DNA of 64,000 nucleotides, taken from NCBI GenBank assembly GCA_021735645.1, contig JAIPGP010000007.1:36-64035 (forward strand). The letters run 5' to 3'. A program made the translations under genes and the position numbers. A model generated the notes under the pieces. That model saw only the letters and a program-made list of their open reading frames with translations, was not told where the DNA came from and ran no database searches. The stretch comes from Candidatus Cloacimonadota bacterium. GTDB taxonomy: Bacteria; Cloacimonadota; Cloacimonadia; Cloacimonadales; TCS61. Positions 23,323 through 64,000 of the stretch are shown piece after piece. Each line of letters begins with the position of its first letter. Position 1 is the first letter of the stretch.

Positions 23323-23496
23323 TAGGCACACCCGCCACTGAGTCCACCATGTCCACTGCGTCTTGTTTAGTTCTGGAATGGAAATTGCATTGTATTCATT
23401 TTAGATGGGGTATGGGTACAAAATAGAGGCTTTATCGTATAAAACCTGTAATTATTTTTGACAATGGGAGATAATATGTTAACGGAGGCTGCTAGT

Positions 23497-31860: not shown

Positions 31861-33519
31861 GTGAAGAATAATATAAACCCGACCGAAACTTCCTCCTGGC
31901 AGAAACTGCATTTGCATTTTCAGTCGATGAAAGATTTCGATATGCGAAGCGAATTTAACCGTGATCAAGACAGGTTCCAGAAATTCTCTTTAAGCTGGAA
32001 TGATCTGCTGCTGGATTTTTCCAAGAATCTGATAACATCAGAAACCATGAGCCTTCTTGTTAACCTGGCAAATGAATGCCAGCTAAAAGATGCTATTGAA
32101 GAAATGTTTACAGGTGAACGCATAAATGTAACCGAGAACAGGGCAGTGCTGCATACAGCTTTGCGAAACCAGGATACAGAACCGGTGTATGTGGATGGAA
32201 AAGATGTGATGCCACAAATTAACAGTGAATTAGCCAAAATGAAAATATTCGCTGATAAAATCTACTCCGTAACCTGGCTGGGCTGTAGTGGAAAACCAGT
32301 TACAGACCTGGTAAATATCGGGATTGGCGGTAGTGATCTTGGTCCCAAAATGGTCTGCGAAGCACTAAGGTTCTTTGGAAATCCTCAGTTAGAAGTGCAC
32401 TTTATCTCCAATATTGACGGCACACACATAACAGAAACGCTTAAAAAACTGAATCCGGAAACCACACTTTTTATGATAGCTTCCAAAACGTTCACAACTC
32501 AGGAAACCATGACAAATGCTCAGACTGCCCGAAGCTGGTTCCTGCAGAATGAGCGTACTGAAGCTGATATTGCCCGTCATTTTGTGGCTATTTCCACGAA
32601 TAAACGAGCTGTGCATGACTTTGGCATAGACCCTGCCAACATGTTTGAATTCTGGGATTGGGTTGGCGGCAGATACTCGCTCTGGTCAGCTATTGGCTTA
32701 CCTGTAATGTGCTATACCGGTTATGATAATTTCAGCGAATTACTAAGGGGCGGCTGGCAGATGGATAAGCATTTTCGTCAGACAGAATTTGCAGCTAATA
32801 TCCCCGTGATCTTAGCCCTGATCAGCATCTGGTATAACAATTTTTATGGAGCGGAAACTGAAGCAGTGCTGCCCTATGAACAATATCTGCATCGTTTTCC
32901 AGCTTATCTTCAGCAGAGCAATATGGAAAGTAACGGCAAGGAATGTGACCGCAATGGCAATAGCATCAGCTATAAAACCGGACCAATTATCTGGGGCGAA
33001 CCCGGCACTAACGGGCAGCATGCCTTTTATCAATTGATCCATCAGGGTACCAGATTGATACCCTGCGATTTCCTGGCTGGAGCGGAATCAAACAATCCTA
33101 TTGGTGATCATCACCTCAAGCTGCTGGCTAATTTCTTTGCCCAGACAGAAGCCCTACTGATGGGAAAATCACCTGCTGAAGTGAAAACTGAGCTGCTGGC
33201 TCAAGGCAAAACAACAGCAGAAATCAAAGCTCTCCTGCCCTTTAAGGTCTTCAAAGGCAATAAACCCACTAATTCCATAATATATAAAAAATTAACTCCC
33301 AGAGTCCTGGGCAATCTCATTGCCATGTATGAACATAAGATATTTGTGCAGGGCATTATCTGGAATATCTACAGCTTTGACCAGTGGGGCGTGGAACTGG
33401 GCAAACAACTCGCCGGCAGGATCTTACCAGAACTGCGGACTGACGAAAACGTCACTAATCACGACAGCTCCACAAATAGCCTGATAAATGCCTGCCGAGC
33501 GATGAGAAAAGAGGAATAA
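31861..33519 (+). CDS. pgi: glucose-6-phosphate isomerase
   Basis: 552-aa ORF with a GTG start. It has the signature motifs [10 protein letters not shown] and SKTFTTQET, and the C-terminal region with [17 protein letters not shown]. Confidence 0.95.
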
Positions 33520-46241: not shown

Positions 46242-49200
46242 TTACTTGATCATCACCATTTTACGGGTCGCTGAATACTGAGAGGTACTAATCGAATAGA
46301 AATAGATGCCACTGGCGACCTGATTTCCATTGTCATTAGTTCCGTCCCAGACGACAGAATATGATCCAGCTTCCCTTGGTTCTCTCACGAGAGCCTTTAT
46401 CTTCTCTCCTCTCAAATTGAAGATATTTAAGGTAACGTAATCCTGAGCAGCTAATTCAAAGCAGATAGTAGTTTCAGGATTAAACGGATTAGGATAGTTT
46501 TGATTAAGGGCATTTACGGGAACAATCTCATGTTCCTCTTCCTCAACTGGATAGAAAACAGCCAGATAAGGTTCAAAGGGAGATCCGATCTTAGAATCAG
46601 CCTGGAATGTAATCATATCAAGACTTGTGTTTTCGATATTGTTTTCATCCAGAAGGCGAATATAGAGAGGATCACCGGCATTATCACCTACAATAGTGAA
46701 ATACCAGAAGCCCTGATCAAGATATTCACTTTCCTGCCAGATACCATGAGCCCGGCAGTTATCATCAGCATCGAAAATTCCCATGGCTCTTCCTTCAGCC
46801 CATTCAAATGTTTCGTCATTATATTCAGCCGATAGCATGAGGATCATGTTATCCGAATTTCCAGGAATAATTTCCCATTCAGCGGGTGAATTATCCGGCA
46901 TAGAAATAGAATAGTTCTGGTTTCTGGTAACAACCGGATAGAGAGGATAAACCAGGACATCCGGGTTTTCCATCTGAATCTTGTAGCCAATACCAGGTGC
47001 CATGGTTTGAAGATCACCAAACCAGATGCCATTACCTACTTCTGGGAAGTATTCAGCTGATTGGGTTTGATTTTTAACGATTTGGACATTATCGAGAATT
47101 GAGAAGAGTGCTGAAGACAAAGAATCTATTTCAGGTGGATAATACGCAATCCAGTTCCAGTCAGCGATCATCTCAATAGGAGTATCAGACATAATGCGGT
47201 TACCAGTTAGCGAGAATCCTGGAGCAGGGTCAGTTACATTCACCAGGTAACCTCCGCCATCGATAATAAACTCTAAATCACCAAACCAGCCATATAAATC
47301 AGGATAGTAGTCAGCAGACTCAGTTTGATATTTTACGGTGTTAACATTATCACCTAAAGGTCCAAATACATATCCCAGGGAATAATCTTCCGGCTGAACA
47401 TAGAAAGAAATCCAGTTCCACATGACATTAAGATCAAGGTATTGAGTAATAGTGTAGGTAATATCAACCAGGAATGTATCAGAGACGGTGGCACGATTGA
47501 CGTTATCATCTGCCGTAACGATTACCTGAGAAACGCCATACCAGTTTATAATCGAAGATATAGAGAGCAATCCATCTGATTCAGTAGCGCTAATTTCCTG
47601 ATCATTGAAATCAACATAGTAGGTTAACATATCTCCATCAACGTCATAGAAATGATCTGAAAGCACAATATCAAATGGAGCGAAATTGATTTCTACATAC
47701 TGATCAGGGATTGGAGTCTGGACTACAGGAGCATCATTAACTGGAATAATCTGGAAATTCACAATATCAGAAGTACTAGCCATGTAAGAATCATAGACAG
47801 TGAAAGTGATATTTTCATCGCCATTCCAATCAGGATATGGAGCAGTTACCGTAGCAAAGTGAGTAACCGGATTGATATCAACATTCAAGTCCACATTTCC
47901 TGAATACTCCCAGATCAGGGTAGGATCGGGATCATCAACATCAGTGATATAATAATTCAGATTAATCGGATTAAAGAGGTTTCCTTCCAGTATCTGCTGG
48001 TCAGGGATGAGGAACTGGAAGAATGGTACATCATTAACAGGATTCACAACAACATTGACAGTGTCATAGACAACAAATCTTGATTCATCGGTCAGTGAGA
48101 AAGTGATAATCTCTGTACCAAACCAGTTCACATCAGCCGAGAAAGTAACAATCGTGCCCACAATGTCAATAATGACATGATTTGCACCTAAGGCATTCAG
48201 TTCCAATTCCTCTGGAGGAGTATCTATATCACAAACACAACCTTCATCAATTAAGTCAATAACCAGGGAAGTATCTTCGTCAAAATCGTACTGGGGAGGT
48301 AGCATTAAAAGAGGTGGATCATTCACTGGAGAAACATTCATAATAAAGATATCAGAGGCTGAAAGACGATTATAACCATCCTCAGCAACAACAGTGATTT
48401 CGGTATTTCCATTCAGGTTAAGAATACTGCTAATCTCGAGCAGATTATCCTGAATATCCAGCATCACGATAGAATCCGCAGCAGTGGCGGAATAAGAGAG
48501 TAAGTCCCCATCGACATCAGCAAAATACAGATTTAGATCAATGGAATACGTCTCAAAATCCTCATCACGGAATTGATCAGAAATGTTGCTAACAAGATAG
48601 GGAGGATCATTTACTCCATTAACTGTTACCAGGAAAGTATCAGTAACAACTAACCTGCAAAGCTGATCTGAGGCAAATATCGTTACTTCTGTGACACCAG
48701 TCCAATCCGGAACTGAATGAATCAGCATTTCTGAGCCATTTAGCATCAGGGCAATATGCAGATTATTAAAGGTAGCATTATAAAACAATTGATCACATTC
48801 AATATCACCAAAGTTTTGAGCCAAATCATAAGAATAAGGTGCAAAATCTTCAGTAAATTCCAGATCATCCAATGGAGTTATAATATATGGAGGATCATTG
48901 ACGGGCATAACGACTACATGGATAGTATCAGTAACAACAGCTCTACCCATCAGGTCATCTGCTGTGATATAAGCATCAAAAGGACCAAACCAGTTTTCAA
49001 CAGCCGTAACGGTCATTATATTGCCAGCAATATTCACAATGCCATTCGGGTCAGAGACCATAGCAGAATATGAAAGTAAATCTCCATCAACATCGAAGAA
49101 CTTTGTATCCAGATCAACAGGGTCTGAGACAGTATCCTCATTAATTATGATATCTTCCAAAGCGGTTAAAACCACAGGAGCATCATTAACCGGATAAACA

Positions 49201-52200
49201 GTAACAACAAACTCATCAGTAACAAAAGCTCTGAGCTGCTGATCATTTGCTGTTACCGAGATAATTGTCTCACCATTCCAGTTATCAATTGAAGTTATTT
49301 CCAGGAGATTTCCGATGACATTAGCAGTAATTTCCGAAGCTGTATAATCAACAGAATATACTAAGCCATTATCATCATCGGCAAAGTATTCATTCAGATT
49401 GATGTATTGATTATCGAAGTCTTCAAAATAGAACCTGTCAGGGAGCGGAACAGCAATATAAGGAGGGTCATTAACAGGATTAACCGTTAACTGGAATTGA
49501 TCAGTAACAGAAAGTCTGTCATGACCGTCATTTGCTGTGACGCTAATATTAGTGAGACCATTCCAGTTAAGCACTGGAGCGATCTCGAGAACTGTACCAT
49601 TCAAAACCACATCGACATTATCTGAATTGAAGTCTATACTATATTCAAGTACAGCATCATCAACATCGGCAAAATAACCAGCGAAATCGATAGTGAAGGG
49701 CTGGAAATCTTCATCTCTGGTAATATCATCAAAATAATTGACGATATATGGCGGATCGTTAACAGGTTCCACAATCACATCAAATACATCAGAAACAAGA
49801 TAACGATAATCATCCTGAGCACTAACCGTAATTGGTGTTGTGCCATACCAGTTTTCTTGAGGAGTAAAATACAAGTTTGGATAAGAAATAGTCACAACAA
49901 TATTTTGAGTTTCATAAGAGGCAGAATACTGCAGAACATCGCCATCTACATCAGCAAAATAATCATTCAAGTTGATAACTTGAGTAGGAGCATCCTCCAG
50001 AATATACTGGTCAGGAATAGGAGTAACTGTAGGTGCATCATTCACAGGATTAACAATCACATTCACATAATCATTAGAGAATTCGGGACCATTGGCATTG
50101 GAAACGATGAAATTGATCATTTCTGAACCATTCCAGTTGGGATAAGCTCCCAAAGTAACATTTAAACCGCTGACATCAACCGTAATCATGCTATTATCTT
50201 CAGCGGTAACTACCAGGTCAAAGCCATCTGGATTACTGATATATGATGCAAAATTAACATCAAGAGTTTCATCTTCATCAAAAGAGAAAGAAGTCGGAAG
50301 AGTGATTGTGAGAGCGTCTGCTTCTGGCAGAACTATAACCGTAACCATATCTTCGGCATTATACTCACCATCGAAAACATTGAAAGTAACAAATTCGGTG
50401 CCATTCCAGTTTTCAAGATTTGAGAAAGTAACCATCAGCCCATCAATATCAATCAAGACATTAGTATTACCATTAGCAGTTAATATAAGTATATCACTAT
50501 CTACATCAGTGATATACTGGTCAAAATCAATTACCAGAATATTATCTTCATAGAACGCGATAGAGTCAGGTAAGGCGATAGTTGGAGGGTCATTTACGGG
50601 CTGAATATTTACCCAGAATGCATCCTGCGCAGTGGCTCTGACGCCATCATCGGCAGTTACAGTTATTTCGACATTACCGGACACGTTGGGCAGGGGAGAA
50701 ATATATAAAGTTCCATAAGAAATATAAGCCTGAATGATATTAGCATCTAATTCAACTGAGAATGACAGAGTATTATCATAATCATAGAAATGTGCATTAA
50801 GATTTATATCGAAAGCAGTAAAATCTTCAAAAACATTATAATCATCTATAGGATCAGACACAAATGGCGGATCATTAACCGGCTGAACAATGATCAGGAA
50901 AGTATCAGAAGCGGGATCATTTAAGGGGACATTGTCAGAAGCATAAACAGTAACCGAGGCATTGCCATTCCAGTTAAAGACAGAATTAACGGTCATTACG
51001 TTTCCAACGATAGAAATACCTATCTGACTGGAATTATAATCTGCCGTGTATGTTAAAAGATCATTTTCCGGATCAGAGAAGTAAGTGCTCAGATCAATAT
51101 CGAAAGGTATAAAATCCTCAAGTTTATTATAATCATCCATAGGTGAAACCAGAACTGGAGGGTCATTAACCGGCATAACTTCAATCGTAAATGTATCAGA
51201 AGCTGTCAACCTCAGACCGAATTCATCCTGAGCAGTTACCGTGACATCAACCAAACCATTCCATTGAGGTACGGAAGAAATTGTCATGATCTCATCAACG
51301 ATATTAATAACGACAGTATTTTGAGTACTCAGAGAAGCTGAAAATGATAATATATCATTATCGACATCAGCAAAATAATCATATAAGTTCAGACTGAAAT
51401 CAGCAAAACCTTCTTCTTTTAACTGATCCGGGATAAACTCATACACATATGGAGGGTCGTTAACAGGGTTAACTATAGCATTAAAAGTATCAGAAATTTC
51501 ACCGTAGGCATCTGCTGCGATAACGGTAATTGGTGAAGTTCCAAACCAGTTCGTAACTGGCTGGAAATAGAGCATATTATCAACGATCCAGGCATTCATT
51601 TGCATATTATTGAATTGAACAGTATAAACCAGAGGGTCATTATCATAGTCATAGAAGAAATTATTCAGGTTTCTGCTGATAGCAGCTGCGTCTTCCTGCA
51701 TAGGAGTATCTGGTAAAGGGGTGATAACAACTGGAGGGTCATTAACTTCCGAGACAGTGATCTGGAAATTATCACTGGTAGTAAAGCGGGTGAAATCATC
51801 ACTTGCTGAAACAACAACGTTGGTGGTGCCTGTCCAGTTTGGCACAGAGTTGATAGTCAATAATGTATCAACAATAGAAATGAGAACATGATCATTATTG
51901 AACTGAACGCTATAAGTAAGGGAAACATTATCAACATCCGTGAAATAATCCAATAAATTGATCTGATAATCTACGAAATCTTCTGTTAAGAAAAGATCGG
52001 GGAATTCAATAATCAATTCAGGAGGATCATTAACAGGATTAACTGTAACATTAACAGTGTCATAAACCGTATATTCCGCATCACTGGCAGAGAAAATTAT
52101 CGTCTCAGTACCAAACCAGTTTGGCTGATTGGTGATAGTAACAAGACCATATCCATCAATAGCTATATTTAGATTGATATTATTTGAGAATCCATATTCT

Positions 52201-53297
52201 AATACATCTCCATCCGGATCAGAAAAAATATAGCCCAGGCTGAGATGTTCATCTGATGTATCCTCATTAAACGAGAAATCAGGAATTGGATTTGCCACAA
52301 CAGGTGGATCATTTACGGAAGTAACTTCCACAGGGACAGTATCTGAAGCAATTGCTCTGGCAGTATTATCATTAATAGTAAATGTGATGTATTCAATTCC
52401 ATTGAATCCGCTCTGGGGGGTGAAAGTTACATTATATCCGGTAATAGAAACCTGAATTTGCTGATTATTAGAATATGACAAGGTCAGGATAGTATTATCG
52501 ACATCAAATATATATTCTGTGAAATCAACCTGATAGACAGTATCTTCCTGGAAGGAGAAACCTTCATCCGGTAAGTTAATAGTCGGTGGATCATTCACCG
52601 GCTGTACTTGGATTTCCACAAGAGCATTTGAAGTTTCATAATCACCATCGGTAGCATAATATTCAAAGAAATCATTACCGAAATAATTTAGATTCGGCTG
52701 ATAAGTAAAAGAGCCGTCATCATTGAAGTTAAGCACGCCATTATCGACATCAGCAGCAAGTACGACCCAGAATTCGTCCAGATAATCCAAGTTAATATAA
52801 TCATTGATAAGCACTCCAGATTCCGTAGAGATATAAAGGAGTGAATCTTCATAAGCGCCATACATATCATCAATGACATATGGTATGGTAAGCAGGAAAG
52901 TATCATCATAAGAGCCAATAACAATATTATCGACAAACATTGAACTTTCCCGGCAATCCAGAACCTGATCACCTGCCGCATCATAGATTTTGTAAGTAAT
53001 GATTTCATTATCTCCGGGTTCAGCATTGCTGACGATAGTCATGTACCAGAGCTGGTACTGGTTATATTCATTCCAAAAGGCAATAGCCCGGCAATCACTT
53101 TCACCACCAGGACCAAAGGCAGCAACGATATTTTCCGGATTTGAGTTTGTGAAATACTGAGCCATGAAATCAACTTGAGAATAGACCTGCATGCTATACT
53201 GAGTTCCAGGAATTACCTCCCATTCTGGAGCTACAGCAGCTAAACTCACAAACAAGACCAAAAAAACGACTAAACCAACGCATTTTAACATTTTCAT
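46242..53297 (-). CDS. giant surface protein: N-terminal shared module, ~18 tandem-95/cadherin-like repeats, duplicated NWNWI domain, C-terminal shared module, T9SS C-terminal sorting domain
   Basis: 2351-aa ORF with a signal peptide. There are about 18 VNDPP/VNDAP repeat boundaries. The C-terminus NYPNPFNPETTICF..LNIFNLRGEKI..GIYFYSIS..KMVMIK is a CTD. Confidence 0.8.
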   Translation of the reverse strand: MKMLKCVGLVVFLVLFVSLAAVAPEWEVIPGTQYSMQVYSQVDFMAQYFTNSNPENIVAAFGPGGESDCRAIAFWNEYNQYQLWYMTIVSNAEPGDNEIITYKIYDAAGDQVLDCRESSMFVDNIVIGSYDDTFLLTIPYVIDDMYGAYEDSLLYISTESGVLINDYINLDYLDEFWVVLAADVDNGVLNFNDDGSFTYQPNLNYFGNDFFEYYATDGDYETSNALVEIQVQPVNDPPTINLPDEGFSFQEDTVYQVDFTEYIFDVDNTILTLSYSNNQQIQVSITGYNVTFTPQSGFNGIEYITFTINDNTARAIASDTVPVEVTSVNDPPVVANPIPDFSFNEDTSDEHLSLGYIFSDPDGDVLEYGFSNNINLNIAIDGYGLVTITNQPNWFGTETIIFSASDAEYTVYDTVNVTVNPVNDPPELIIEFPDLFLTEDFVDYQINLLDYFTDVDNVSLTYSVQFNNDHVLISIVDTLLTINSVPNWTGTTNVVVSASDDFTRFTTSDNFQITVSEVNDPPVVITPLPDTPMQEDAAAISRNLNNFFYDYDNDPLVYTVQFNNMQMNAWIVDNMLYFQPVTNWFGTSPITVIAADAYGEISDTFNAIVNPVNDPPYVYEFIPDQLKEEGFADFSLNLYDYFADVDNDILSFSASLSTQNTVVINIVDEIMTISSVPQWNGLVDVTVTAQDEFGLRLTASDTFTIEVMPVNDPPVLVSPMDDYNKLEDFIPFDIDLSTYFSDPENDLLTYTADYNSSQIGISIVGNVMTVNSVFNWNGNASVTVYASDNVPLNDPASDTFLIIVQPVNDPPFVSDPIDDYNVFEDFTAFDINLNAHFYDYDNTLSFSVELDANIIQAYISYGTLYISPLPNVSGNVEITVTADDGVRATAQDAFWVNIQPVNDPPTIALPDSIAFYEDNILVIDFDQYITDVDSDILILTANGNTNVLIDIDGLMVTFSNLENWNGTEFVTFNVFDGEYNAEDMVTVIVLPEADALTITLPTSFSFDEDETLDVNFASYISNPDGFDLVVTAEDNSMITVDVSGLNVTLGAYPNWNGSEMINFIVSNANGPEFSNDYVNVIVNPVNDAPTVTPIPDQYILEDAPTQVINLNDYFADVDGDVLQYSASYETQNIVVTISYPNLYFTPQENWYGTTPITVSAQDDYRYLVSDVFDVIVEPVNDPPYIVNYFDDITRDEDFQPFTIDFAGYFADVDDAVLEYSIDFNSDNVDVVLNGTVLEIAPVLNWNGLTNISVTANDGHDRLSVTDQFQLTVNPVNDPPYIAVPLPDRFYFEDFDNQYINLNEYFADDDNGLVYSVDYTASEITANVIGNLLEITSIDNWNGETIISVTANDQQLRAFVTDEFVVTVYPVNDAPVVLTALEDIIINEDTVSDPVDLDTKFFDVDGDLLSYSAMVSDPNGIVNIAGNIMTVTAVENWFGPFDAYITADDLMGRAVVTDTIHVVVMPVNDPPYIITPLDDLEFTEDFAPYSYDLAQNFGDIECDQLFYNATFNNLHIALMLNGSEMLIHSVPDWTGVTEVTIFASDQLCRLVVTDTFLVTVNGVNDPPYLVSNISDQFRDEDFETYSIDLNLYFADVDGDLLSYSATAADSIVMLDIQDNLLEISSILNLNGNTEITVVAEDGYNRLSASDIFIMNVSPVNDPPLLMLPPQYDFDEDTSLVIDLIDEGCVCDIDTPPEELELNALGANHVIIDIVGTIVTFSADVNWFGTEIITFSLTDESRFVVYDTVNVVVNPVNDVPFFQFLIPDQQILEGNLFNPINLNYYITDVDDPDPTLIWEYSGNVDLNVDINPVTHFATVTAPYPDWNGDENITFTVYDSYMASTSDIVNFQIIPVNDAPVVQTPIPDQYVEINFAPFDIVLSDHFYDVDGDMLTYYVDFNDQEISATESDGLLSISSIINWYGVSQVIVTADDNVNRATVSDTFLVDITYTITQYLDLNVMWNWISFYVQPEDYSLGYVFGPLGDNVNTVKYQTESADYYPDLYGWFGDLEFIIDGGGYLVNVTDPAPGFSLTGNRIMSDTPIEMIADWNWIAYYPPEIDSLSSALFSILDNVQIVKNQTQSAEYFPEVGNGIWFGDLQTMAPGIGYKIQMENPDVLVYPLYPVVTRNQNYSISMPDNSPAEWEIIPGNSDNMILMLSAEYNDETFEWAEGRAMGIFDADDNCRAHGIWQESEYLDQGFWYFTIVGDNAGDPLYIRLLDENNIENTSLDMITFQADSKIGSPFEPYLAVFYPVEEEEHEIVPVNALNQNYPNPFNPETTICFELAAQDYVTLNIFNLRGEKIKALVREPREAGSYSVVWDGTNDNGNQVASGIYFYSISTSQYSATRKMVMIK

Positions 53298-53372: not shown

Positions 53373-56300
53373 TTATTTTATGATGATCAATTTACGATGC
53401 AATGAAGTACCAGCCGATTTAAGGTGATAGAAATATAGACCAGCAGCAACTGAATTTCCCTTGCTGTCAGTTCCATCCCATTCAGCCACATGGAAACCAG
53501 CATCTTGAACTTCATTAACAATATCACACACTTTTTGTCCCTTAATGTTATAAAGAGACAATACTATTTGACCTGTAACGGGTAAACCATACCTGAAACT
53601 GGTACAGTAATCTCTATCCCCAGTTTTCAGACTAAACGGATTAGGATAGTTTTGATTTAGAATATAACTGTCTGGCACATCCAGGTCTTCACCACCTTCA
53701 GTAATATTGAATTCAATTGAGAGCAGATTATAAGGATTACCTAACTTAGTATCAGCATTAAAAATCAGCTCATATTCACTAATATGTTCAAAACCTTCAG
53801 AGTCATAATAAACAAAGTGAAGTGGTTCATTTTCTATATTACCTACAATAGTGAAGTACCAGAAACCATAATTCAGTTGCGGCACAAATTGCCAGTATCC
53901 ATTGCTTCGACAATTACCATTAATATCAAATACAGCACAGGAGACATCATTCAATGGCATAATATTACCAGAAGGGGTTGTCATCTGAGCCATAGCGATC
54001 ATGTTATCTTCCGTACCGGGCATAATCTCCCAGCGTAAAGAAGAATTCTGAATTTTGAATTTTGAATTTTGAGAGCTTCCATCCTGTGCATTTCGAGTCA
54101 CCAGTGCAGGATATATGAGCTCATCGGATTGGGTTAATTTTACTTTATAACCTACTCCGGGCTGCATAGTATCAAGGTCACCGAGCCAGAGATCCCAATC
54201 TGGATAGTAATCGGCAGAATGCTGTTGATCTTTCACGGTTTCCACATTATCCAGAATTGAAGCAAGTGCATTACTTAAGCTGTCTGGTGAATGCGGATAA
54301 TACGCTATCCAGTTCCAGTCCTCTAACATCTCAATTGGAGTGGAAGCAGGTATAACAGAGCCGTTTACAACGAATTCCTGGAATCCCTGGTTCATTTGAA
54401 CCAGATATCCCTCTCCATCAGTTACATAATCCAGATCACCCATCCAATCATTATATTCAGGAATGTACAGGGAAGATTGGGTCTGGTTTTTAACTACGTT
54501 AACATTATCACTTAAAGGATCAAAGACTCCATTTAAACTTGTATCTTCCGGATGAACATTAAATGAAATCCAGTTCCAGTTTTCAATCAGGTCAAATACC
54601 TGCATACCGCCCATAGCTACATAAACCATAAAAGTATCACTAACTGCAGAACGATATATACCATCTTCAGCAGTTACCACAACTTCGGTTTCACCATACC
54701 AGTTAAGAACAGAAGAAATTGTCAGTAATTCCTGGTTGATCAATGCTGAAATCTGGAGAGGCTCGTAATCTACCATATAGGTTAATTCATTATCCACATC
54801 CTGGAAGTAATCACTAAGATTGACATCGAATGGATCGAAATCTTCTATAAGATAATAATCGGGTATCTCCTGAACTAGCACGGGATCATCGTTAACTGAA
54901 TTTACAATAACATTCACGCTATCAGTAGCTGTTAACCTTGTTTGCATATCATCTACAGTGAAATAGATAACTTCATTTCCATACCAGTTTTCCGGTGCTG
55001 AGAAAGTTACTACCAGTTGATCAATAACAATATTGATATTCACATTGCCATCTACATACAGCTGTAATTCCGGTGAATCAACATCGGAAATGTATGATGC
55101 AAAGTCTTCGATCAATTGCTCATCTTCATTAAAAGTGAAGAAATCTGGTAAAACAATCTCTGGTGGATCATTAACATTTATTACTTCGATAGTAACTGTA
55201 ACTGCTGGTGAATTGACATCACCATCATAAGCCATATACTCAAAATAGTCAAAGCCGACAAAGCCTGGGTCTGGAGCATAAATAAACGCACCAGAAGCCT
55301 GCAGACTAAGAGTTCCATTAGTTACGTCACCATTCGGTGCTAATACAGCAGTGAGAAGTAAAGGATAATTATCATCAGTATCATTAGCAAGAACTCCCAT
55401 ATCAGTATTAATAATCAGGATACTATCTTCTAATACAGTATAAGCATCAGGTAAAGCAACAGGAGTCAGATTTCCATAGGAAGCTACGCTAACTACGGTA
55501 CTGTCACGATTGCTTGCACCTTGATTATCTGTAACGGTTAAAGTAACTGGAGTCGTGCCAGCTGGGAATGAAGCTGCTACTATTTCACCTTCAGCAGTTT
55601 CTCTATTTCTATCTCTGGAAGTAGTGCCGGAATCCCAGCTCCATAGCCAGGATACAATTTCACCATCCAGATCATAAGATCCGCTGCCATCAAGAGTGAT
55701 TATGGCTGTATCTGTGGTATCAGCAACTCCATTATAAGTACCACCAGCATCAGCTACAGGATTATCATTAACTGAGTTAATTATGATATCTGCATAAGTG
55801 ATCCCGGAATAAGTCTCCCCGTCAAAGGCAGTGTAACTGAATTGGTCAGTACCAAAATAGTTTAGCTGAGGAATATACTCAAATGAGCCATCAGAATTCA
55901 GACTAACCAGACCATGCAGAGTGCCGTCTATTAATACTGCTGTCAATGTTTCAGGATAATCGTCATCAGTATCATTAGCAAGAACTCCCAGATCAGCGGA
56001 AATAGTTAATATGACATCTTCATCTGTTTCGTATTGATCAGATACAGATACAGGTAACTGATTATTATAAGAAGCGACTCCTACTAAGGCTGTATCTGTG
56101 TCAATTGCCCCTTCAGAATCAGTTACAGTAAGAGTAACGATAGTAGTGTTAACCGGGAAACTAATTGTAACAATTTCGCCTTCGGCTGAACCATCTGACC
56201 ATGACCACTGATAACTGACAATCGAGTTTTCCACATCATAACTTCCGGAGGCGTCTAAAGTGATCAGAGCAGTGTCAGATTGATCTGCCTGGCCATTGTA

Positions 56301-59300
56301 TGGACCTCCAGCATCCGCAACCGGTTCATCGTTGATGGAATTAATCGTGATCACTACTTGAGTAAGTGGTGATAAAGTCTGTCCATCATAAGCTGCATAA
56401 GTGAAAGTATCTGTTCCATTGAAATTGCTTTCAGGAGTATAGATAAAGGAACCATCAGAATTCAGTATCAAGGTTCCATTTGCTGGATCATCAAGCAGAA
56501 CTGCCTGCAGAGCTTCGGGGAAATCGTCATCAGTATCATTTGCCAAAACTCCCATTTCGGCATCTACATTCAGGATATCATCCTCATTTGTCTCATAAGC
56601 ATCATTAATTGCAACAGGTATTTGATTATTATACTGAGCAACTCCCACCAGGGCAGTGTCTGTATCCGAATCTCCACTATCATCTACTACTGTCAAAGTA
56701 ACAATCGTAGTACCAACCGGGAATACCGCTTCCAGGATCATACCTGTAGCGATATTGTTTCCACCCCAGGTCCACTGGTAAAGGACGATAGAGCCATCAA
56801 GATCATAACTTGAGCTGGCATCGATAGTTACTGTGGCATAACCATTATTATCTGCCGTTGTCTGATAAGGACCTCCAGCGTCAGCAACTGGTAGATCATT
56901 GACGGATTCAACGTTGATAGTTACTAATACTACATTAGAGAAGGTTTGACCATCATACAGGTAGTAGGCAAATTGATCAACGCCATTAAAATTGGTGTCA
57001 GGAATGTAAGTGAAAGCTCCATCCCAACCATCTACATCGTAGATCAAAGTACCATTTGAAGTACTATCCGCTAAAACAGCCACTAACCTTCCCGGGTAAC
57101 CATCGTCAGTATCGTTAATCATGATACCCATTGATGTGCTAACAACCAGACTTTGATCCTCCATTGTATAGAAAGAATCCGCAACGGCTATAGGAGCGAT
57201 ATTAATATAATCAGAAATTCCCACAGGGCTGGAATCTGTATCAGTGGCACCATTATTATCAGTAACTGTAAGATACACAATAGTTGGGCCAAATGGGAAT
57301 ATTCCAGTTGCCGTAACTCCTGAAGCTGTGATGGTATCATTCCAGGTCCACAGATAAGAGATTATCTCTCCATCCAGATCATAAGAACCAGATCCGTCCA
57401 GGGTGATTTCTGCAAACCCGGAAACATCTATTTGCCCGGAATAGGGACCATTTGCATCTGCAACAGGCGGGTCATTTACTGGAATAATATTTATAAGAAC
57501 TAATGCTTCTTCAGAATAATCGATCCCATCGTAAGCCATATATCGGAATCTATCCTGACCAGAGTAGTTTTGCACTGGAGTATATATGAATGAACCATCA
57601 GCATTGAATTCAAGGCTACCATGTATCACATTATCTGTAAGTACAGCACTAAGTGAATCTGGCCAGCCACCCGGGACAGTATCAATGTCATTAATCAATA
57701 CTCCATTAACTGTGGTAACAAGTAATTGATTATCTTCATCAATTTCATAATTATCACCAATTGCTACAGGGGGTTCATTTTCCATGGAGATAACTTCAAC
57801 AGTAAATTCCGAGGAACCAATTCCACCGTCATCATCTGTTACAACAAGAGTTACAGTTTGGAGACCTACTTCAAAGGCATAAGTAAATAGCTCTGCCTCA
57901 GAAATTACATTACTGTTAAATATCCACTGGTAAGAAACAATCTCTCCATCAAAGTCATAAGAACCGGAACCATCCAGCGTCACGTCTGCCAGGCCAGTTA
58001 AATCTGCCTGAGCAATATAAGGTCCTCCAGGAACAGCTACAGGTAACATATTAGTATAGGCATTTATGGTTAGATAAAGAGTATCACCTGGAGCTGAATA
58101 TGTATATTCATGAACATAGCACATGAAATCAGCACTTTCATCCCATACTGCGAAATAAATGACCTCAGGGTAATCACCCAAAATATTAAAGGTGGTAAGT
58201 CCCAGAGAGCCATTGTATGTAACTTCGCCTTCACCTCGAGGAATTCCATTCAAGTCAAATGCCCCAACCATATCACCAGTAGCCGCAGGCAGGTCATCAA
58301 TAAAGACAGTGCAAACAGCAGTAGTGAAATCATCCCAGATGTTTGGATTTATATACCAGGGATAATCTGGCAGATTGGGTCTGGGATATCGAGTAGCTGC
58401 TATTGGTAATTCATCAGGCGGGTAACCAATATCAAAACCAGGATTTGTATATGTGCTAAAAGCTACGCTAAGCACTTCATCTGCACTGGCATCCCAAACA
58501 GCAAAGCGAACCAATTCTACCACTTCTCCCTGAATGTTCATAGTTACATGAGCACTGATTTCGCGTTGTCTGCCATCATCAATATGATATACACTGGCAA
58601 CAGCTCTACACTGATTACCCACAAAAGCAGCCACTTCATCACCTACAGCTGCCGGCTCTTCGTCTATTGTCACAATACCATAAGCTACTGTACTATTTGA
58701 ATAAGTAACAACCTCCCAAGGTCTTGGGAAGATGTGTGGAGGTTGAGCCTGAGCACCCACAGTTACAATTGCTTCATCCGAATCAGTCGCTCCGGCATTA
58801 TCTGTAACCGTAAGATCAACATTATATATCCCAATTGGGAATACAACGGTCACCATTTCACCAATTGCAGAAAGTCTGGATCTGGCAAATGAAGAAGCAT
58901 TGATCTGCAATTCATTGGGCGGATAACCTATGTCTCCCCCAGGATCTGTCATATAGGTATTGCCTACAGAGTAAACCTGGTCATTACTGTAATCCCAAAC
59001 GGCAAACTGAACCTGCTCTACTGCTTCACCTTGAATATTAAGAGTAACTCGGGAAATTAAGTCTCTCGTGTTTTTGGATCTGACTCTTCTACTTGTATCA
59101 AGAGTGACATTTGCGACACCACGACATTCATTACCTACAAAGGCAGCAACCTGATCGCCAGCACCTGCCGGTTCACCATCTATTGTGACTATTCCATAAG
59201 CTATTGTGCTATTAGTGTATACTACAGGAGTCCACGGTCTTGGGAATATAACGACACCGCCGCCCTCCCAGTTCCAGTAATAGCTCACAATATCACCGTC

Positions 59301-62300
59301 CATATCATAAGAACCGGAGCCATCGAGTGTAACTTCCGCATAACCATCCTGTGCCTGTTCAAAATAATCCTCACCAGCATCAGCTACCGGAGGAATGTTT
59401 TCAGATAAAATAGTAACTATTGTGACATCTGAAGCTGTATCGCCATCATTATCAGTTACTGTCAAAGTAACTTCATATTCTCCAGGCAGGAAATCATAAC
59501 TGGGGGATTCACCATAAATACAGATTTCATCTGTTGATTCAGAATAAGCAGCAATGGGCAACAAGTTGGGCGGATACCCAATATCATAGCCAGGATTTGT
59601 CATAGTAGTGTAATACACGGATACCACTTCATCCTCACTGACATCATATACGGCAAATTGCACCAGTTCTACAGATTCACCCTGAATATTTATACTTACA
59701 ATAGAGGTTCGTGCATCGTCAGTAACGTAACCTATCCCTCTACATTCATAGTTTACAAATGCTCCCACTTCGTCACCCGGTGAAGCCGGATTACCATTAA
59801 TGGTAACTTCACCATAAGCAAGTGTAGTATTTGTATAAATTACTTCATTCCATGGTCTTGGAAATTCTGTTCTCATAGCGATAGTTTTACTAGCCCTGCT
59901 GTTGGAAACAGCAGCGATTGGTAATAAATCAGGAGGATAACCAATATCATAACCAGGATTGGTCATAGTAGTGTAATATACAGATACTACTTCTGCTTCA
60001 CTGGCATCATATACAGCAAAATGCACCAGTTCTACAGATTCACCCTGAATATTTAAACTTACAATAGAGGTTCGTGCATCGTCAGTAACATAACCGATTC
60101 CTCTACATTCACCATCTACAAACGCTCCCACTTCATCACCTGGTGAAGCTGGATTACCATTAATAGTTACTTCACCATAAGCAAGTGTAGTATTTGTATA
60201 AATTACTTCATTCCATGGACGCGGGAAACTACTTCCTGTTCCAGGAGTTCCTCCCCAACACCATTCATAGTTAACAATCTCACCATCAATATCATAACTG
60301 CCGGAGCCATCAAAATTGACTGTTGCTATTCCTGTTTCGATTGAAGCAATTTCTTCATAAGGTCCTCCAGCATCTGCTACTGGCGGATAATTGTATTCGG
60401 TAACTGTCACGGTTGTCAAATCTGAATCAGTTGCACCTCTATCATCAGTTACAGTAAGAGTAACAAAATAAGTACCTACAGGATAGTAAACCAGGGGATT
60501 AACTCCGGTAACACAATTATAGTTTGTCACAGTTGAAGCTGCAATAGGTAATAAGTCTGGAGGTAAACCAATATCGCCGCCAGGATGAGTTTGAGTAGTA
60601 AATGTTACGCTTAGCACTTCATCTTCACTGGCATCATAAACTGCAAAATTGACAGTTTCTACAGATTCACCCTGAATATTCATGCTAACTATTGATAAAC
60701 CTTCATTCATGGCAACATCCCCAACACCACGGCATTGATTATTAATAAATGCACCTACCTGATCTTCTAAATCAGCATTAGCACCATCAATAGTAACTCT
60801 TCCATAAGCTACAGTGCTATTAGTATAATACACTGGTTGCCAGGGTCTTGGGAAACTTCTGCTGCGGCTTAGACCCATATCAAGCCGATTGCTTGAAAGA
60901 GCAGCCAAAGGAATCAAATCTGGCGGGAATCCAATATCGCCCCCAGGATCTGTTTGAGTATAATAATTAACTCCATATACAGCATTTGCACTTTGATCAT
61001 AGACAGCAAAATGTACTGTCTCAATGGTTTCACCCTGAATATTGAGTGTCACAATAGACTCTGTCCTATTAAGTGTAACAAACCCGACGCCGCGGCATTC
61101 ATTGTTAATAAATGCACAAACTTCGTCTTCTTCTGCAGCCATCAATCCATCAATTGTCACTCTTCCGTAAGCTACAGTGCTATTAGTGTAATTTACAACA
61201 TTCCAGGGTCTCGGGAAAGCATAAGAATAAGACCCGTTGGTAGATACGGCATTAATTGGCAGGAAATCCGGAGGATAGCCTATATCATTACCTGGATTAG
61301 TCTGAGTATAATATGAAACAGACCAAACCTGATTTTCGCTATAATCAAAGACAGCAAAGTTCACTGTTTCTTCAATTTCTCCCTGGATATTGAAAGTTGA
61401 ATATGAATGATTATTATCAATAAAAACTGATCCAATTGCCCTGCATTCACTTCCAACAAAAGCACCAACCTGATCACGAATTGTCGCGTTTTCACCATCA
61501 ATTGTTACACGGGAATAAGCTACTGTGCTGTTAGTGTAATTCACAACAGTCCATGGACGTGGGAATATTGCACTTCCACCACCCAGCCAGCACCATTCAT
61601 AATTTACAATAGAGCCATCCAGATCATAAGAACCACTGCCATCAAGTTGTACACCAGCTACACCACCAGTTTCTGCTACAGCTTCATAAGGACCATTGGC
61701 ATCTGCTACTGGAATGTAGTTATAATCATTAATAGTTACTGTTGTTTGATCAGTAGCTACTGCTCCATCATCATCTGTTACCGTCAAGGTTACTTCGTAA
61801 GTTCCGGTTGGGAAATAGACATCAACATATTCACCTTGAACACAATTTAAGATATCAGATTGTATTTCACTTGATGCGGCAATTGGTAATAGATTCGGAG
61901 GATATCCGATATCATGTCCCGGATTAGTCATCGTGGTATATACTACCTGCAATACTTCATTCTCACTTTCATCCCAGACAGCAAAATTCACTATTTCAAC
62001 GGTTTCACCCTGAATATTCAAACTCACTATAGAGGTTCGAACATCATCTGTGACAGTTCCTGTGCCACGGCATTCATCGCCTACAAAAGCTCCTACTTCA
62101 TCACCAGGAGATGCCGGGAAACCATTTATAGTTACTTCTCCATAAGCTACTGTGCTATTGGTATAATTAACAACAGCCCAGGGACGCGGGAATTCATTAC
62201 GATTTAAGGAGCCGGAAGCAGCTATAGGCAGAAGATCTGGCGGGTAACCAATGTTATATCCCGGATTAGTGAAAGTGCTGAATGAAACACCTGCAATCTC

Positions 62301-64000
62301 TCCTACGCTGGCATCCCATACTGCAAAATTTACTAATTCAACTGATTCTCCCTGAATGTTCATGGATACTATTGACTGACCATCATTATCAACCACATAA
62401 CCTACTGATCTACATTCACCATCAACGAAAGCTCCCACTTCATCTCCAGGAGATGCCGGGATTCCATCTATAGTTACTTCCCCATATGCCACAGTACTAT
62501 TTGTATAATTAACAACATTCCATGGACGTGGGAAGACCTGAACACCTTGTGAATAACCAGATGTATAAGAAGCAATTGGTAATAAATCCGGTGGATAACC
62601 AATATCATTTCCCGGGTCTGTTTGTGTATAGTATGAAACCTGACAGATTTCATCTTCACTAACATCATACACGGCAAAATGAACTATTTCTGGTTCTTCA
62701 CCCTGAATATTCATAGTTACCAATCCATCGCTATTCTGGATATTTACATATCCTATACCTCTGCATTCACCATTAATAAATGCACCTACTTCATCATATT
62801 CTGCTGCATTTTCACCATCAATAGTGACAACGCCATAAGCTATGGTACTATTGGAATATACTACCGGTAGCCAAGGTCTCGGATAAAATTCTGACCCTTG
62901 ACCATACCAGCACCATTCATAATTTACTATCTCGCCATCCAAATCATAAGACCCGCTACCATCAAGGTTAATAAGTCCCAGTCCATTGAAATCCGCATCT
63001 TCCTGATATGGGCCATCTGCATCCGCAACAGGTGCATAATTATGTTCTATTACAGTTACAACTGTAGTTTCACTATCAGTGGCTCCATCATCGTCTGTTA
63101 CGGTCAATGTCACTTCATATTCGCCTATCGGGAACAATACATCCAGAGTTTCACCTGTAAAACAATTGGCAAGTACTGGTATTATCTCCGTTGCTGCTGC
63201 AATTGGCAGTAAATTCGGAGGATAACCAAGATCATTACCAGGACTGGTCATTGTAGTATAAGAGACTCCGATCACTTCATCTACACTACTGTCATAGACG
63301 GCAAAGTGGACTGTCTCGGCTAGTTCGCCCTGGATATTCATACTGCTGATCGATTGACCTTCAATAAGCTCTATGTAACCTATTCCTCGACATTCTGTCC
63401 CGACAAAAACGCCTACCTGATCTTCCACTGCAGCTAATTCACCATCTATGGTTACATTACAATAAGCTACTGTGCTGTTGGTGTAATTTACTACACTCCA
63501 GGGACGTGGAAATTCGGTGCGTGAATGTGATAATTCTAATCCTCTGGAACTGCTGGCATGTACAGGAAGCAAATTGGGAGGATATCCAAGATTTCCACCT
63601 GGCATAGTTTGGGTTGTAAAAGCTACATTATAAACTGCATCCATACTGGCATCATAAACTGCAAAATTGACTGTCTCAATGCTTTCACCCTGAATATTCA
63701 TTGTTGTAATTGTGATTCCATCATTTAATACAATGCTTCCAGTACCTCTACATTCTGAACCTACAAAAACACCAACTTCATCATTTACTGATGCTGAAAC
63801 CCCATCTATTGTTACTTCACAATATGCTACTGTGGTATTAGTATAGGTTACTACATCCCAGGGACGCGGGAATCCACCTGGTATTGTTCCACCACTACTG
63901 ATTGCTGCTATGGGCAGCATATCAGGTGGATAGCCGATATCATTACCCGGATTGCTCATGGTGCTATAGGATACTCCATATACGGCATTAGCACTCAGAT
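53373..64000 (-). CDS. giant surface protein, 5'-truncated by the window edge: >=14 FPRPW...CRG modules interleaved with PKD-like domains, alternating PKD/cadherin-like pairs, tandem-95 repeats, duplicated NWNWI domain, C-terminal shared module, T9SS C-terminal sorting domain
   Basis: The ORF track starts at Met 63959. The frame stays open to nt 64000 and reads ...LSANAVYGVSYSTMSNPGNDIGYPP, which is the tail of a further repeat module. So the true start is outside the window and the protein exceeds 3541 aa. The C-terminus NYPNPFSLK...LSLYNIKGQKV...GLYFYHLK...KLIIIK is a CTD. Confidence 0.85.
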   Translation of the reverse strand, partial: LSANAVYGVSYSTMSNPGNDIGYPPDMLPIAAISSGGTIPGGFPRPWDVVTYTNTTVAYCEVTIDGVSASVNDEVGVFVGSECRGTGSIVLNDGITITTMNIQGESIETVNFAVYDASMDAVYNVAFTTQTMPGGNLGYPPNLLPVHASSSRGLELSHSRTEFPRPWSVVNYTNSTVAYCNVTIDGELAAVEDQVGVFVGTECRGIGYIELIEGQSISSMNIQGELAETVHFAVYDSSVDEVIGVSYTTMTSPGNDLGYPPNLLPIAAATEIIPVLANCFTGETLDVLFPIGEYEVTLTVTDDDGATDSETTVVTVIEHNYAPVADADGPYQEDADFNGLGLINLDGSGSYDLDGEIVNYEWCWYGQGSEFYPRPWLPVVYSNSTIAYGVVTIDGENAAEYDEVGAFINGECRGIGYVNIQNSDGLVTMNIQGEEPEIVHFAVYDVSEDEICQVSYYTQTDPGNDIGYPPDLLPIASYTSGYSQGVQVFPRPWNVVNYTNSTVAYGEVTIDGIPASPGDEVGAFVDGECRSVGYVVDNDGQSIVSMNIQGESVELVNFAVWDASVGEIAGVSFSTFTNPGYNIGYPPDLLPIAASGSLNRNEFPRPWAVVNYTNSTVAYGEVTINGFPASPGDEVGAFVGDECRGTGTVTDDVRTSIVSLNIQGETVEIVNFAVWDESENEVLQVVYTTMTNPGHDIGYPPNLLPIAASSEIQSDILNCVQGEYVDVYFPTGTYEVTLTVTDDDGAVATDQTTVTINDYNYIPVADANGPYEAVAETGGVAGVQLDGSGSYDLDGSIVNYEWCWLGGGSAIFPRPWTVVNYTNSTVAYSRVTIDGENATIRDQVGAFVGSECRAIGSVFIDNNHSYSTFNIQGEIEETVNFAVFDYSENQVWSVSYYTQTNPGNDIGYPPDFLPINAVSTNGSYSYAFPRPWNVVNYTNSTVAYGRVTIDGLMAAEEDEVCAFINNECRGVGFVTLNRTESIVTLNIQGETIETVHFAVYDQSANAVYGVNYYTQTDPGGDIGFPPDLIPLAALSSNRLDMGLSRSRSFPRPWQPVYYTNSTVAYGRVTIDGANADLEDQVGAFINNQCRGVGDVAMNEGLSIVSMNIQGESVETVNFAVYDASEDEVLSVTFTTQTHPGGDIGLPPDLLPIAASTVTNYNCVTGVNPLVYYPVGTYFVTLTVTDDRGATDSDLTTVTVTEYNYPPVADAGGPYEEIASIETGIATVNFDGSGSYDIDGEIVNYEWCWGGTPGTGSSFPRPWNEVIYTNTTLAYGEVTINGNPASPGDEVGAFVDGECRGIGYVTDDARTSIVSLNIQGESVELVHFAVYDASEAEVVSVYYTTMTNPGYDIGYPPDLLPIAAVSNSRASKTIAMRTEFPRPWNEVIYTNTTLAYGEVTINGNPASPGDEVGAFVNYECRGIGYVTDDARTSIVSINIQGESVELVQFAVYDVSEDEVVSVYYTTMTNPGYDIGYPPNLLPIAAYSESTDEICIYGESPSYDFLPGEYEVTLTVTDNDGDTASDVTIVTILSENIPPVADAGEDYFEQAQDGYAEVTLDGSGSYDMDGDIVSYYWNWEGGGVVIFPRPWTPVVYTNSTIAYGIVTIDGEPAGAGDQVAAFVGNECRGVANVTLDTSRRVRSKNTRDLISRVTLNIQGEAVEQVQFAVWDYSNDQVYSVGNTYMTDPGGDIGYPPNELQINASSFARSRLSAIGEMVTVVFPIGIYNVDLTVTDNAGATDSDEAIVTVGAQAQPPHIFPRPWEVVTYSNSTVAYGIVTIDEEPAAVGDEVAAFVGNQCRAVASVYHIDDGRQREISAHVTMNIQGEVVELVRFAVWDASADEVLSVAFSTYTNPGFDIGYPPDELPIAATRYPRPNLPDYPWYINPNIWDDFTTAVCTVFIDDLPAATGDMVGAFDLNGIPRGEGEVTYNGSLGLTTFNILGDYPEVIYFAVWDESADFMCYVHEYTYSAPGDTLYLTINAYTNMLPVAVPGGPYIAQADLTGLADVTLDGSGSYDFDGEIVSYQWIFNSNVISEAELFTYAFEVGLQTVTLVVTDDDGGIGSSEFTVEVISMENEPPVAIGDNYEIDEDNQLLVTTVNGVLINDIDTVPGGWPDSLSAVLTDNVIHGSLEFNADGSFIYTPVQNYSGQDRFRYMAYDGIDYSEEALVLINIIPVNDPPVADANGPYSGQIDVSGFAEITLDGSGSYDLDGEIISYLWTWNDTITASGVTATGIFPFGPTIVYLTVTDNNGATDTDSSPVGISDYINIAPIAVADSFYTMEDQSLVVSTSMGIMINDTDDGYPGRLVAVLADSTSNGTLIYDVDGWDGAFTYIPDTNFNGVDQFAYYLYDGQTFSNVVLVTINVESVNDLPVADAGGPYQTTADNNGYATVTIDASSSYDLDGSIVLYQWTWGGNNIATGMILEAVFPVGTTIVTLTVVDDSGDSDTDTALVGVAQYNNQIPVAINDAYETNEDDILNVDAEMGVLANDTDDDFPEALQAVLLDDPANGTLILNSDGSFIYTPESNFNGTDTFTYAAYDGQTLSPLTQVVITINSINDEPVADAGGPYNGQADQSDTALITLDASGSYDVENSIVSYQWSWSDGSAEGEIVTISFPVNTTIVTLTVTDSEGAIDTDTALVGVASYNNQLPVSVSDQYETDEDVILTISADLGVLANDTDDDYPETLTAVLIDGTLHGLVSLNSDGSFEYIPQLNYFGTDQFSYTAFDGETYSGITYADIIINSVNDNPVADAGGTYNGVADTTDTAIITLDGSGSYDLDGEIVSWLWSWDSGTTSRDRNRETAEGEIVAASFPAGTTPVTLTVTDNQGASNRDSTVVSVASYGNLTPVALPDAYTVLEDSILIINTDMGVLANDTDDNYPLLLTAVLAPNGDVTNGTLSLQASGAFIYAPDPGFVGFDYFEYMAYDGDVNSPAVTVTIEVINVNDPPEIVLPDFFTFNEDEQLIEDFASYISDVDSPELQLYVDGNVNINIVIDQLVVTFSAPENWYGNEVIYFTVDDMQTRLTATDSVNVIVNSVNDDPVLVQEIPDYYLIEDFDPFDVNLSDYFQDVDNELTYMVDYEPLQISALINQELLTISSVLNWYGETEVVVTAEDGIYRSAVSDTFMVYVAMGGMQVFDLIENWNWISFNVHPEDTSLNGVFDPLSDNVNVVKNQTQSSLYIPEYNDWMGDLDYVTDGEGYLVQMNQGFQEFVVNGSVIPASTPIEMLEDWNWIAYYPHSPDSLSNALASILDNVETVKDQQHSADYYPDWDLWLGDLDTMQPGVGYKVKLTQSDELIYPALVTRNAQDGSSQNSKFKIQNSSLRWEIMPGTEDNMIAMAQMTTPSGNIMPLNDVSCAVFDINGNCRSNGYWQFVPQLNYGFWYFTIVGNIENEPLHFVYYDSEGFEHISEYELIFNADTKLGNPYNLLSIEFNITEGGEDLDVPDSYILNQNYPNPFSLKTGDRDYCTSFRYGLPVTGQIVLSLYNIKGQKVCDIVNEVQDAGFHVAEWDGTDSKGNSVAAGLYFYHLKSAGTSLHRKLIIIK

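Follow-up and report, generated by a model that had tools for sequence, protein, structure and literature searches.

The window analysed here is a 64,000-nucleotide stretch of contig JAIPGP010000007.1 (positions 36 to 64,035, forward strand; assembly GCA_021735645.1) from a Candidatus Cloacimonadota bacterium. One end of the window is occupied by a giant gene for a cargo protein exported by type IX secretion (the T9SS), which carries at least 14 copies of a module of ~105-121 residues, and this module is our subject. The gene lies on the minus strand at 53373-64000, with its stop codon at 53373-53375. The list of open reading frames gives 53373-63959, but the frame runs on unclosed as far as the window edge. 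The gene is thus 5'-truncated, with at least 3,541 residues of the protein visible. The translation matches Pfam PKD_4 in 12 stretches, Big_9 and Cadherin_4/5, as well as tandem-95 and Por_Secre_tail in NCBIfam. The closest relatives of the gene are found in metagenome-assembled genomes (MAGs) of Candidatus Cloacimonadota.

All main module copies lie in this one reading frame, and all features of the giant protein given below are on the minus strand. A regular-expression search for [FY]PRPW gave 12 starts; ten of these copies are exactly 106 residues long, copy 11 has 117 and copy 12 has 112. A hidden Markov model (HMM) built from the 12 copies recovered each of them at E 1e-49 to 1e-56, together with a degenerate copy 13 (residues 1884-1974, nt ~58062-58358; E 3e-15 with this HMM and 1e-24 with an HMM of the wider family) and the tail of a further copy at the window edge (residues 2-32, 63903-63995; HMM positions 76-106, E 7e-10). 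The repeat of the module in the giant protein is far beyond chance. A preliminary description, made from the letters of the sequence, had counted at least 14 repeats and proposed an HMM of the window's copies as a check; with 12 full copies, the degenerate copy and the edge tail all recovered, its count stands, and its coordinates and motifs are correct. Following the protein from the window edge, the runs contain at least 3, then 3, 3, 2, 1 and 2 copies. Copies 1 and 2 (residues 43-148 and 163-268, 63195-63872; E 1e-52 and 9e-55) belong to the first run. Copies 12 and 13 (residues 1757-1868 and 1881-1979, 58062-58730; E 1e-50 and 3e-15) form the last. A tentative, divergent extra copy lies just upstream of the sorting domain (residues 3354-3430, 53709-53939), with an independent E-value (iE) of 2e-3 for the family HMM and an hhalign probability of 79% (E 1.5e-5).

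The relation of the module runs to the PKD domains was analysed with a PKD HMM built from the five canonical PKDs of the giant protein. The N-terminal half of the protein gives PKD matches to half-domains only, either to HMM positions 1-45 (N-halves) or to positions ~45-85 (C-halves); the PKD identity of these hosts agrees with the Pfam PKD_4 match (E 1e-63). The run of copies 1 and 2 closes into the C-half of a first host, PKD-a (residues 281-317, 63048-63158; HMM positions 49-85, E 1e-10). PKD-b (61731-63032) consists of an N-half at residues 323-367, copies 3-5 at 372-708 and a C-half at 720-756, the half-domains matching HMM positions 1-45 and 48-84. The PKD and module HMMs likewise give PKD-c (60399-61712), with its N-half at residues 763-809, copies 6-8 at 812-1154 and its C-half at 1169-1200, and PKD-d (59406-60383), with its N-half at 1206-1251, copies 9-10 at 1258-1484 and its C-half at 1500-1531. 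PKD-e (58758-59390), which was also modelled and searched with Foldseek, has its N-half at residues 1537-1580, the single copy 11 at 1585-1701 and its C-half at 1708-1747. The order is invariably a PKD N-half, one to three modules and a PKD C-half, so the module runs are inserted in the PKD loop after the Y-x-W-x-W strand. The preliminary description had the runs separated by PKD-like domains; PKD material does lie between them, but it is a C-half followed by the next N-half and not a whole domain, the runs themselves being nested. Copies 12 and 13 are un-nested; they follow PKD-e in the protein and precede the first of the canonical PKDs.

The structure predicted by AlphaFold2 (AF2) for a PKD-e construct comprising the N-half, copy 11 and the C-half (residues 1536-1750) has a mean predicted local distance difference test (pLDDT) score of 90.8. 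Because solved PKDs align across the entire 215-residue construct (Foldseek probability 1.00, target-normalised TM-score 0.69-0.79), the two halves in this model reassemble into one PKD domain, from which the module is an excursion. The aligned solved PKDs are those of ColG/ColH (4aqo, 4jrw, 4tn9, 4u6t) and AAVR (7wqp_R, 6nz0_Z). The split-PKD layout is also present in L002, a locus from a Cloacimonadota MAG that encodes an orthologue of the giant protein with a like layout, and in L005, P0007 and P0034. Nesting is not universal: the homologue P0009 has eight plain tandem modules, and many homologues have a complete PKD beside the module. The insertion is flanked by a Cys pair, YEWCW ... [NI]-C-x-x-G, only in PKD hosts with two or three modules. 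In the giant protein, YEWCW is found at residues 364-366, 804-806 and 1247-1249, and N/I-C-x-x-G at residues 279, 719, 1162 and 1493; neither the single-module host (YYWNW ... SAIGE) nor the unsplit canonical PKDs have the pair. L002 shows the same pattern. The two Cys could form a disulfide staple where the bud leaves its host, a hypothesis with weak support, as the independent events behind it are few.

When the ten 106-residue copies were compared, they showed 52-93% protein identity and 58-88% DNA identity, with copies 9 and 10 being 93% identical to each other. No tandem array was detected at the DNA level by TRF. The repeats in the window are old, diverged and selected protein repeats and not an assembly artefact. 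The features that the preliminary description called invariant hold (W5, T14, D31/V33/F36, R42, N59/I60/G62/E66, F70/A71/V72/D74 and P91/G92), with the exception of its single Cys, which is too strict: copies 1, 2, 3 and 7 have an extra Cys, and across the family the Cys is conserved in 83% of sequences, versus 99% for the adjacent Arg, R42. Family-wide conservation is 92% for D31, E66 and Y10, 91% for E40 and 86% for D74. The family thus has four conserved acidic positions, along with conserved aromatics at W5, Y10, Y17 and W/Y73.

Variation in length is seen at one place. Copy 11 (58896-59246) has an 11-residue basic insert, RRVRSKNTRDL, in the β4-β5 loop, copy 12 (58395-58730) has a 6-residue insert near the same site, and the L002 orthologue has a longer insert at the same loop position as copy 11. 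The AF2 model gives the insert loop of copy 11 with lower confidence and with a short helix. No other loop of the module is hypervariable, and this one may be relevant to specificity. Separately, glycosylation was considered as a reading of the conserved N-S-T and set aside on motif rules: the motif lacks the acidic residue at −2 of the Campylobacter-type sequon, and it does not contain the D-[ST]-x motif of O-glycosylation in Bacteroidota.

An isolated module (copy 5) was modelled by AF2 from an 87-sequence alignment and is predicted to be all-β, with eight strands (pLDDT 95.8, predicted TM-score 0.87). A Foldseek search of the PDB with this model gave nothing at E ≤ 1e-3. The best matches, at E 0.03-0.5, TM-score 0.34-0.47 and 9-14% identity, are led by CBM20 starch-binding domains (CBM, carbohydrate-binding module), an intradiol-dioxygenase β-sandwich, the C-domain of the A. 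fulgidus lipase and a CnaB-type pilin. We take all of these neighbours to have the prealbumin-like fold of SCOP, and that fold class is plausible for the modelled module. The only significant structural neighbour is a predicted, not solved, structure in BFVD: A0A0F7L4H0, a 136-residue uncharacterised protein of an uncultured marine virus, without annotation or functional information (Foldseek E 1.2e-4, TM-score 0.71; root-mean-square deviation 2.5 Å over 100 columns, 15% identity). This match between two models hints that the module fold occurs also in viral proteins. Profile-profile comparison by hhalign showed the module to be unrelated to the PKD (probability 1.5%) and to the T9SS C-terminal domain (CTD; probability 5.7%). 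The module is an autonomous domain, and its boundaries, which the preliminary description had considered might be artefacts of a larger fold, are not.

Domain libraries were searched with single copies, the whole protein, a 13-copy profile (A1) and an 87-sequence profile (A2). For the 13 window copies, Pfam-A (2025 copy, E up to 10) has no family that covers the module, none in Pfam-A or NCBIfam covers it in the whole giant protein, and none in NCBIfam r20 covers it in the window protein or the homologues. A sequence-profile search of the PDB matched no chain to the module. When 26 homologues, and then 53 more, were compared with the domain libraries, no family fell on the module, stray matches being inconsistent (E 0.02-0.2); in the tally for those 53, any family on the module would have ranked first. 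The earlier view that no named family could be assigned, and that the module is novel, has thus survived both the sequence searches and the AlphaFold and Foldseek analysis of one unit, in which no solved structure was matched significantly. When the profile was searched exhaustively against 1.84 billion cluster representatives at the 50% identity level, 1,495 of them matched at E ≤ 1e-3, and 358 did so at E ≤ 1e-10; a word-indexed homologue search gave 8 fragments. The module is thus far from private to the giant protein, its family numbering at least 1,495 representatives. NCBI gives the homologues no names beyond "hypothetical", "PKD domain-containing" or "tandem-95 repeat protein". Those homologues with a named source include Cloacimonadota and one Ignavibacteriales bacterium. 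A scan of genome-collection contigs with A1, which samples the FPRPW subtype only, found that subtype in no genomes but MAGs of Candidatus Cloacimonadota, among them one from Ca. Stygibacter frigidus.

Architectures were compiled for 155 homologous proteins, made up of the 150 best family matches and fragments from the word-indexed search. In 63 of these proteins the module comes directly after a start that resembles a signal peptide, and a T9SS CTD is present in 87, of which 33 have a gap of ≤30 residues between module and CTD. Two minimal cargo proteins, P0078 (209 residues) and P0083 (204 residues), consist only of a signal peptide, the module and the CTD, and P0033 has two modules and a CTD with no other passenger. 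Homologues carry up to 10 copies per protein, with eight consecutive in P0009. Partner domains include BACON, PKD, Big_9, cadherin, Laminin_G_3 and dockerin (the last in 4 of 53 family members), and a cohesin occurs in P0025. The sole catalytic partners are the peptidoglycan hydrolases Peptidase_M23, CHAP and Amidase_3, in P0018, P0025 and one further member of the A5 alignment, and no polysaccharide-degrading glycoside hydrolase is among the 25 most frequent of the 51 co-occurring families. That the enzyme partners are hydrolases of this kind is, from the architectures, a weak hint at the bacterial cell envelope as target.

The remainder of the giant protein is a stalk of five unsplit canonical PKDs alternating with tandem-95/Big_9/cadherin-like domains (residues 1986-2940, 55179-58043; Pfam, NCBIfam and the PKD HMM) and, at the end, a T9SS type A C-terminal sorting domain (FlgD_ig/Por_Secre_tail, residues 3451-3541 of 3541, 53376-53648). 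The scores for the sorting domain are barely above the cutoffs (TIGR04183, 23.9 bits against a cutoff of 23; FlgD_ig PF13860, 27.4 bits against 27). Two Trp-rich repeats of ~75 residues (residues 3133-3288, 54135-54602), with the motifs ..ENWNWISFNV...GEGYLVQM.. and ..EDWNWIAYYP...GVGYKVKL.., come after the stalk and before the final, divergent module; the whole-protein scans list no Pfam or NCBIfam match for them.

Two further giant genes follow on the same strand, and each encodes a signal peptide, one module, a Big_9/cadherin stalk and a T9SS CTD, the CTD match being weaker in the third gene. Their modules, directly after the signal-peptide-like start, were detected with the broader family profile A2. 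In the next gene (46242-53297, 2,351 residues) the module is at 52890-53234 (iE 4.7e-8; hhalign probability 96.1%, E 3e-9), and in the third (38411-46108, 2,565 residues) at 45695-46042 (iE 7e-6; hhalign probability 94.7%, E 6e-8). The next gene, immediately downstream of these giants (36108-38402, minus), has a product of 764 residues that contains three OmpA domains as well as a stretch resembling DUF748 and may be an envelope anchor partner. The 64-kb window contains eight T9SS cargo genes in all, and seven besides the giant gene share the sorting tail. These include two adjacent paralogous genes on the minus strand for gingipain-like Peptidase_C25 proteins with a T9SS tail, of 1,153 residues each (7146-10607 and 10693-14154), adjoined by two more cargo genes, one for an M14 carboxypeptidase that likewise has a T9SS tail (14168-16456), the other for a weakly GH43-like protein of 1,001 residues (16498-19503); a further cargo gene is on the plus strand at 23458-26352. 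The PGI gene (31861-33519, plus) has other housekeeping genes near it, namely ComEC, RelA/SpoT, LepA and an M42 peptidase. A 22-kb Logan contig of run SRR12088349 matches the PGI protein exactly and may point to the sample from which the DNA came.

What is the function of the module? We favour, with moderate confidence and by analogy with other adhesins, a role as the multivalent ligand-binding element of a T9SS-anchored fibrillar adhesin. The preliminary description had guessed at a β-sandwich binding module; the sandwich is confidently predicted, and binding is what we infer from the architecture. The giant protein would be exported and anchored through its C-terminal sorting domain. Because T9SS cargo is held at its C-terminus, the N-terminal half, where the module runs are found, would be the cell-distal half of the fibre. 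There, the copies, single or in tandems of two or three, would project from the PKD loops as adhesive, lectin-like or CBM-like elements. With at least 14 copies, attachment would be multivalent and based on avidity, to a repetitive target that could be a polysaccharide in particulate form or another cell's envelope. In homologues, a module directly after the signal peptide of a protein anchored at its C-terminus would therefore be at the distal tip. Furthermore, since the module is the sole passenger in P0078, P0083 and P0033, it must act on its own there, where a bare spacer would be purposeless. The polar conservation of the module is unusual for a spacer, and partner domains of adhesin or binding type favour a ligand-binding module. 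The presence of starch-binding CBM20 among the structural neighbours of the model was counted, weakly, toward binding.

Several observations weigh against this reading. The CBM20 matches (1cqy, 8x8k_C and the CBM20 of β-amylase) have E 0.03-0.11 and TM-scores of 0.34-0.39 and are not significant. Some of the conserved charges may be structural or may bind Ca2+. Head-to-tail arrays with linkers of 7-15 residues, as in the eight consecutive modules of P0009 and the runs of three here, are a hallmark of stalks and extenders. The neighbourhoods of the homologues P0078, P0033 and P0020 gave no functional hint, containing only other T9SS cargo or uninformative genes, and the argument from split domains is drawn by analogy with proteins of another secretion system.

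The main rival explanation draws on some of the same facts. The module could be a structural extender, a rigid β-sandwich bead that lengthens the protein and holds it out from the cell surface, with Ca2+ held at the junctions by acidic residues and no ligand of its own. The tandem arrays with their short linkers (8-15 residues in the giant protein), the high copy numbers in homologues, the four conserved acidic positions and a generic β-sandwich that matches none of the known binding modules significantly are all what an extender would show. However, a spacer role would hardly account for minimal proteins consisting of a signal peptide, the module and the CTD. The module also prefers the extreme N-terminal tip, ahead of the Big_9, cadherin and PKD stalk domains, and the modules of the giant protein bud from stalk domains and are not in line with them. 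In addition, the strong conservation of polar and aromatic residues is kept up from lineage to lineage, the named sources of homologues including Cloacimonadota and an Ignavibacteriales bacterium. We consider the extender a possible but doubtful explanation.

A second alternative is that the module is a cohesin-like docking unit, recruiting secreted proteins to a cellulosome-like complex at the surface, such as has been proposed for some Cloacimonadota. The dockerins and the cohesin found in some family members are in line with this, and Ca. Stygibacter has been inferred to possess a cohesin/dockerin system (PMC8542988); the FPRPW subtype is encoded in the Ca. Stygibacter frigidus MAG. Against it, Pfam Cohesin (PF00963) matches none of the modules; in P0025, the cohesin is at residues 1317-1416 and the modules are at 579-689 and 876-986. 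There is no cohesin among the top 50 Foldseek matches of the isolated module, the module has 106 residues and eight strands compared with 139 positions in the Pfam Cohesin model, and no partner motif was identified. A docking function is thus improbable.

It is more improbable still, to the point of being very unlikely, that the module serves secretion or anchoring, in the folding, quality control or attachment of T9SS cargo. Its association with T9SS cargo is tight, and it often directly follows the signal peptide or lies shortly before the CTD (the gap of ≤30 residues in 33 of 87 proteins). However, such a role gives no rationale for at least 14 internal copies and nested arrays, five other T9SS cargo genes in the window lack the module (the two C25 proteins, the M14 and GH43-like proteins and a 964-residue protein), and the hhalign probability with the CTD is only 5.7%. 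Finally, the idea that the module has been wrongly parsed and belongs to some larger fold already known, or that it is a PKD or immunoglobulin-like (Ig-like) repeat that has diverged, is effectively refuted: MAFFT once aligned whole PKDs onto the module through a common V-T-[IL]-D-G motif, but the hhalign probability with the PKD is 1.5%, the module is predicted to fold alone (pLDDT 95.8) and stands alone between signal peptide and CTD in the minimal proteins, and the PKD fold of the nested model is completed by the flanking halves without it. The likeness to PKDs in that alignment, in which whole canonical PKDs and C-halves were misaligned, was rejected as homology by the same hhalign comparison.

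Returning to the module as a ligand-binding element, a bolder proposal can be made. The module may define a new glycan-binding or cell-envelope-binding family across T9SS-bearing bacteria, in which T9SS adhesins would have evolved split-domain display independently, as a bottle-brush of at least five PKD hosts with one to three modules each. We put this forward tentatively, as a possibility that could well prove wrong; if true, it could mean high-avidity attachment to organic particles or partner cells. Similarly, binding of glycans or envelopes by the module, if it occurs, would be relevant to the way in which uncultured Cloacimonadota fasten themselves to particles or partners, and this phylum has been proposed to interact metabolically with methanogens (PMC8542988). 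Apart from its function, a family of ~1,500 representatives that is the sole passenger of some T9SS cargo is a concrete annotation gap in the T9SS lineages that carry it. The clean module boundaries and the confident model make an HMM and expression constructs directly feasible.

How does the giant protein compare with known fibrillar adhesins? We compared it with the RTX adhesins of the type I secretion system (T1SS), represented by AhLap, FrhA and MpIBP (PMC12077191, PMC10865825). In RTX adhesins, ligand-binding domains have been recognised by their projection from split Ig-like domains, and one such CBM binds fucosylated glycans (PMC12077191). Both are giant repetitive surface proteins with a stalk of Ig-like extenders, and in both, extra domains in the cell-distal part are inserted in the loop of an extender, here a PKD as judged from the gene and the model, so that they would project off the axis. 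In AhLap, one of these buds is a β-sandwich CBM. Unlike the RTX adhesins, the giant protein is anchored by a T9SS CTD, so its distal end is N-terminal; the Pfam and NCBIfam scans gave no RTX or HemolysinCabind match in it, and its C-terminus is a T9SS CTD and not a T1SS signal. The hosts are PKDs, with up to three tandem modules per host and at least five hosts in series, in contrast to single buds (PMC12077191). The module is unrelated in sequence to the binding domains of RTX adhesins, and a binding role here is suggested by analogy. Thus, the giant protein is architecturally like the RTX split-domain adhesins but is not a member of that group. The nested arrays extend beyond RTX proteins and the T1SS the rule that binding domains bud from split domains, which could help to find adhesive domains in T9SS megaproteins.

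Among single domains, CBM20, the intradiol-dioxygenase β-sandwich, the CnaB-type pilin and the A. fulgidus lipase C-domain are, like the module, small all-β sandwiches of ~100 residues. The similarity to these domains is not significant (best E 0.03), and the module has no sequence-profile match to them. In overall design there is also a likeness to fibrillar adhesins with stalk repeats (PKD, Big_9/tandem-95 and cadherin-like domains) and to T9SS-anchored cargo of the FCB group, such as SprB-type proteins: a signal peptide, a tip domain, a long stalk and a T9SS CTD, with co-occurring domains common to both. The difference is in the tip or branch domain, which here is absent from Pfam-A and NCBIfam and is amplified into nested arrays. 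A β-sandwich module in a T9SS-anchored fibrillar adhesin is of a kind already known. What is new is a widespread module family without a Pfam or NCBIfam model, a solved relative or a name in the sources consulted, and its display from serial split PKD domains, each with one to three nested copies, which parallels the display of binding domains by RTX adhesins in a different secretion system and with multiple copies.

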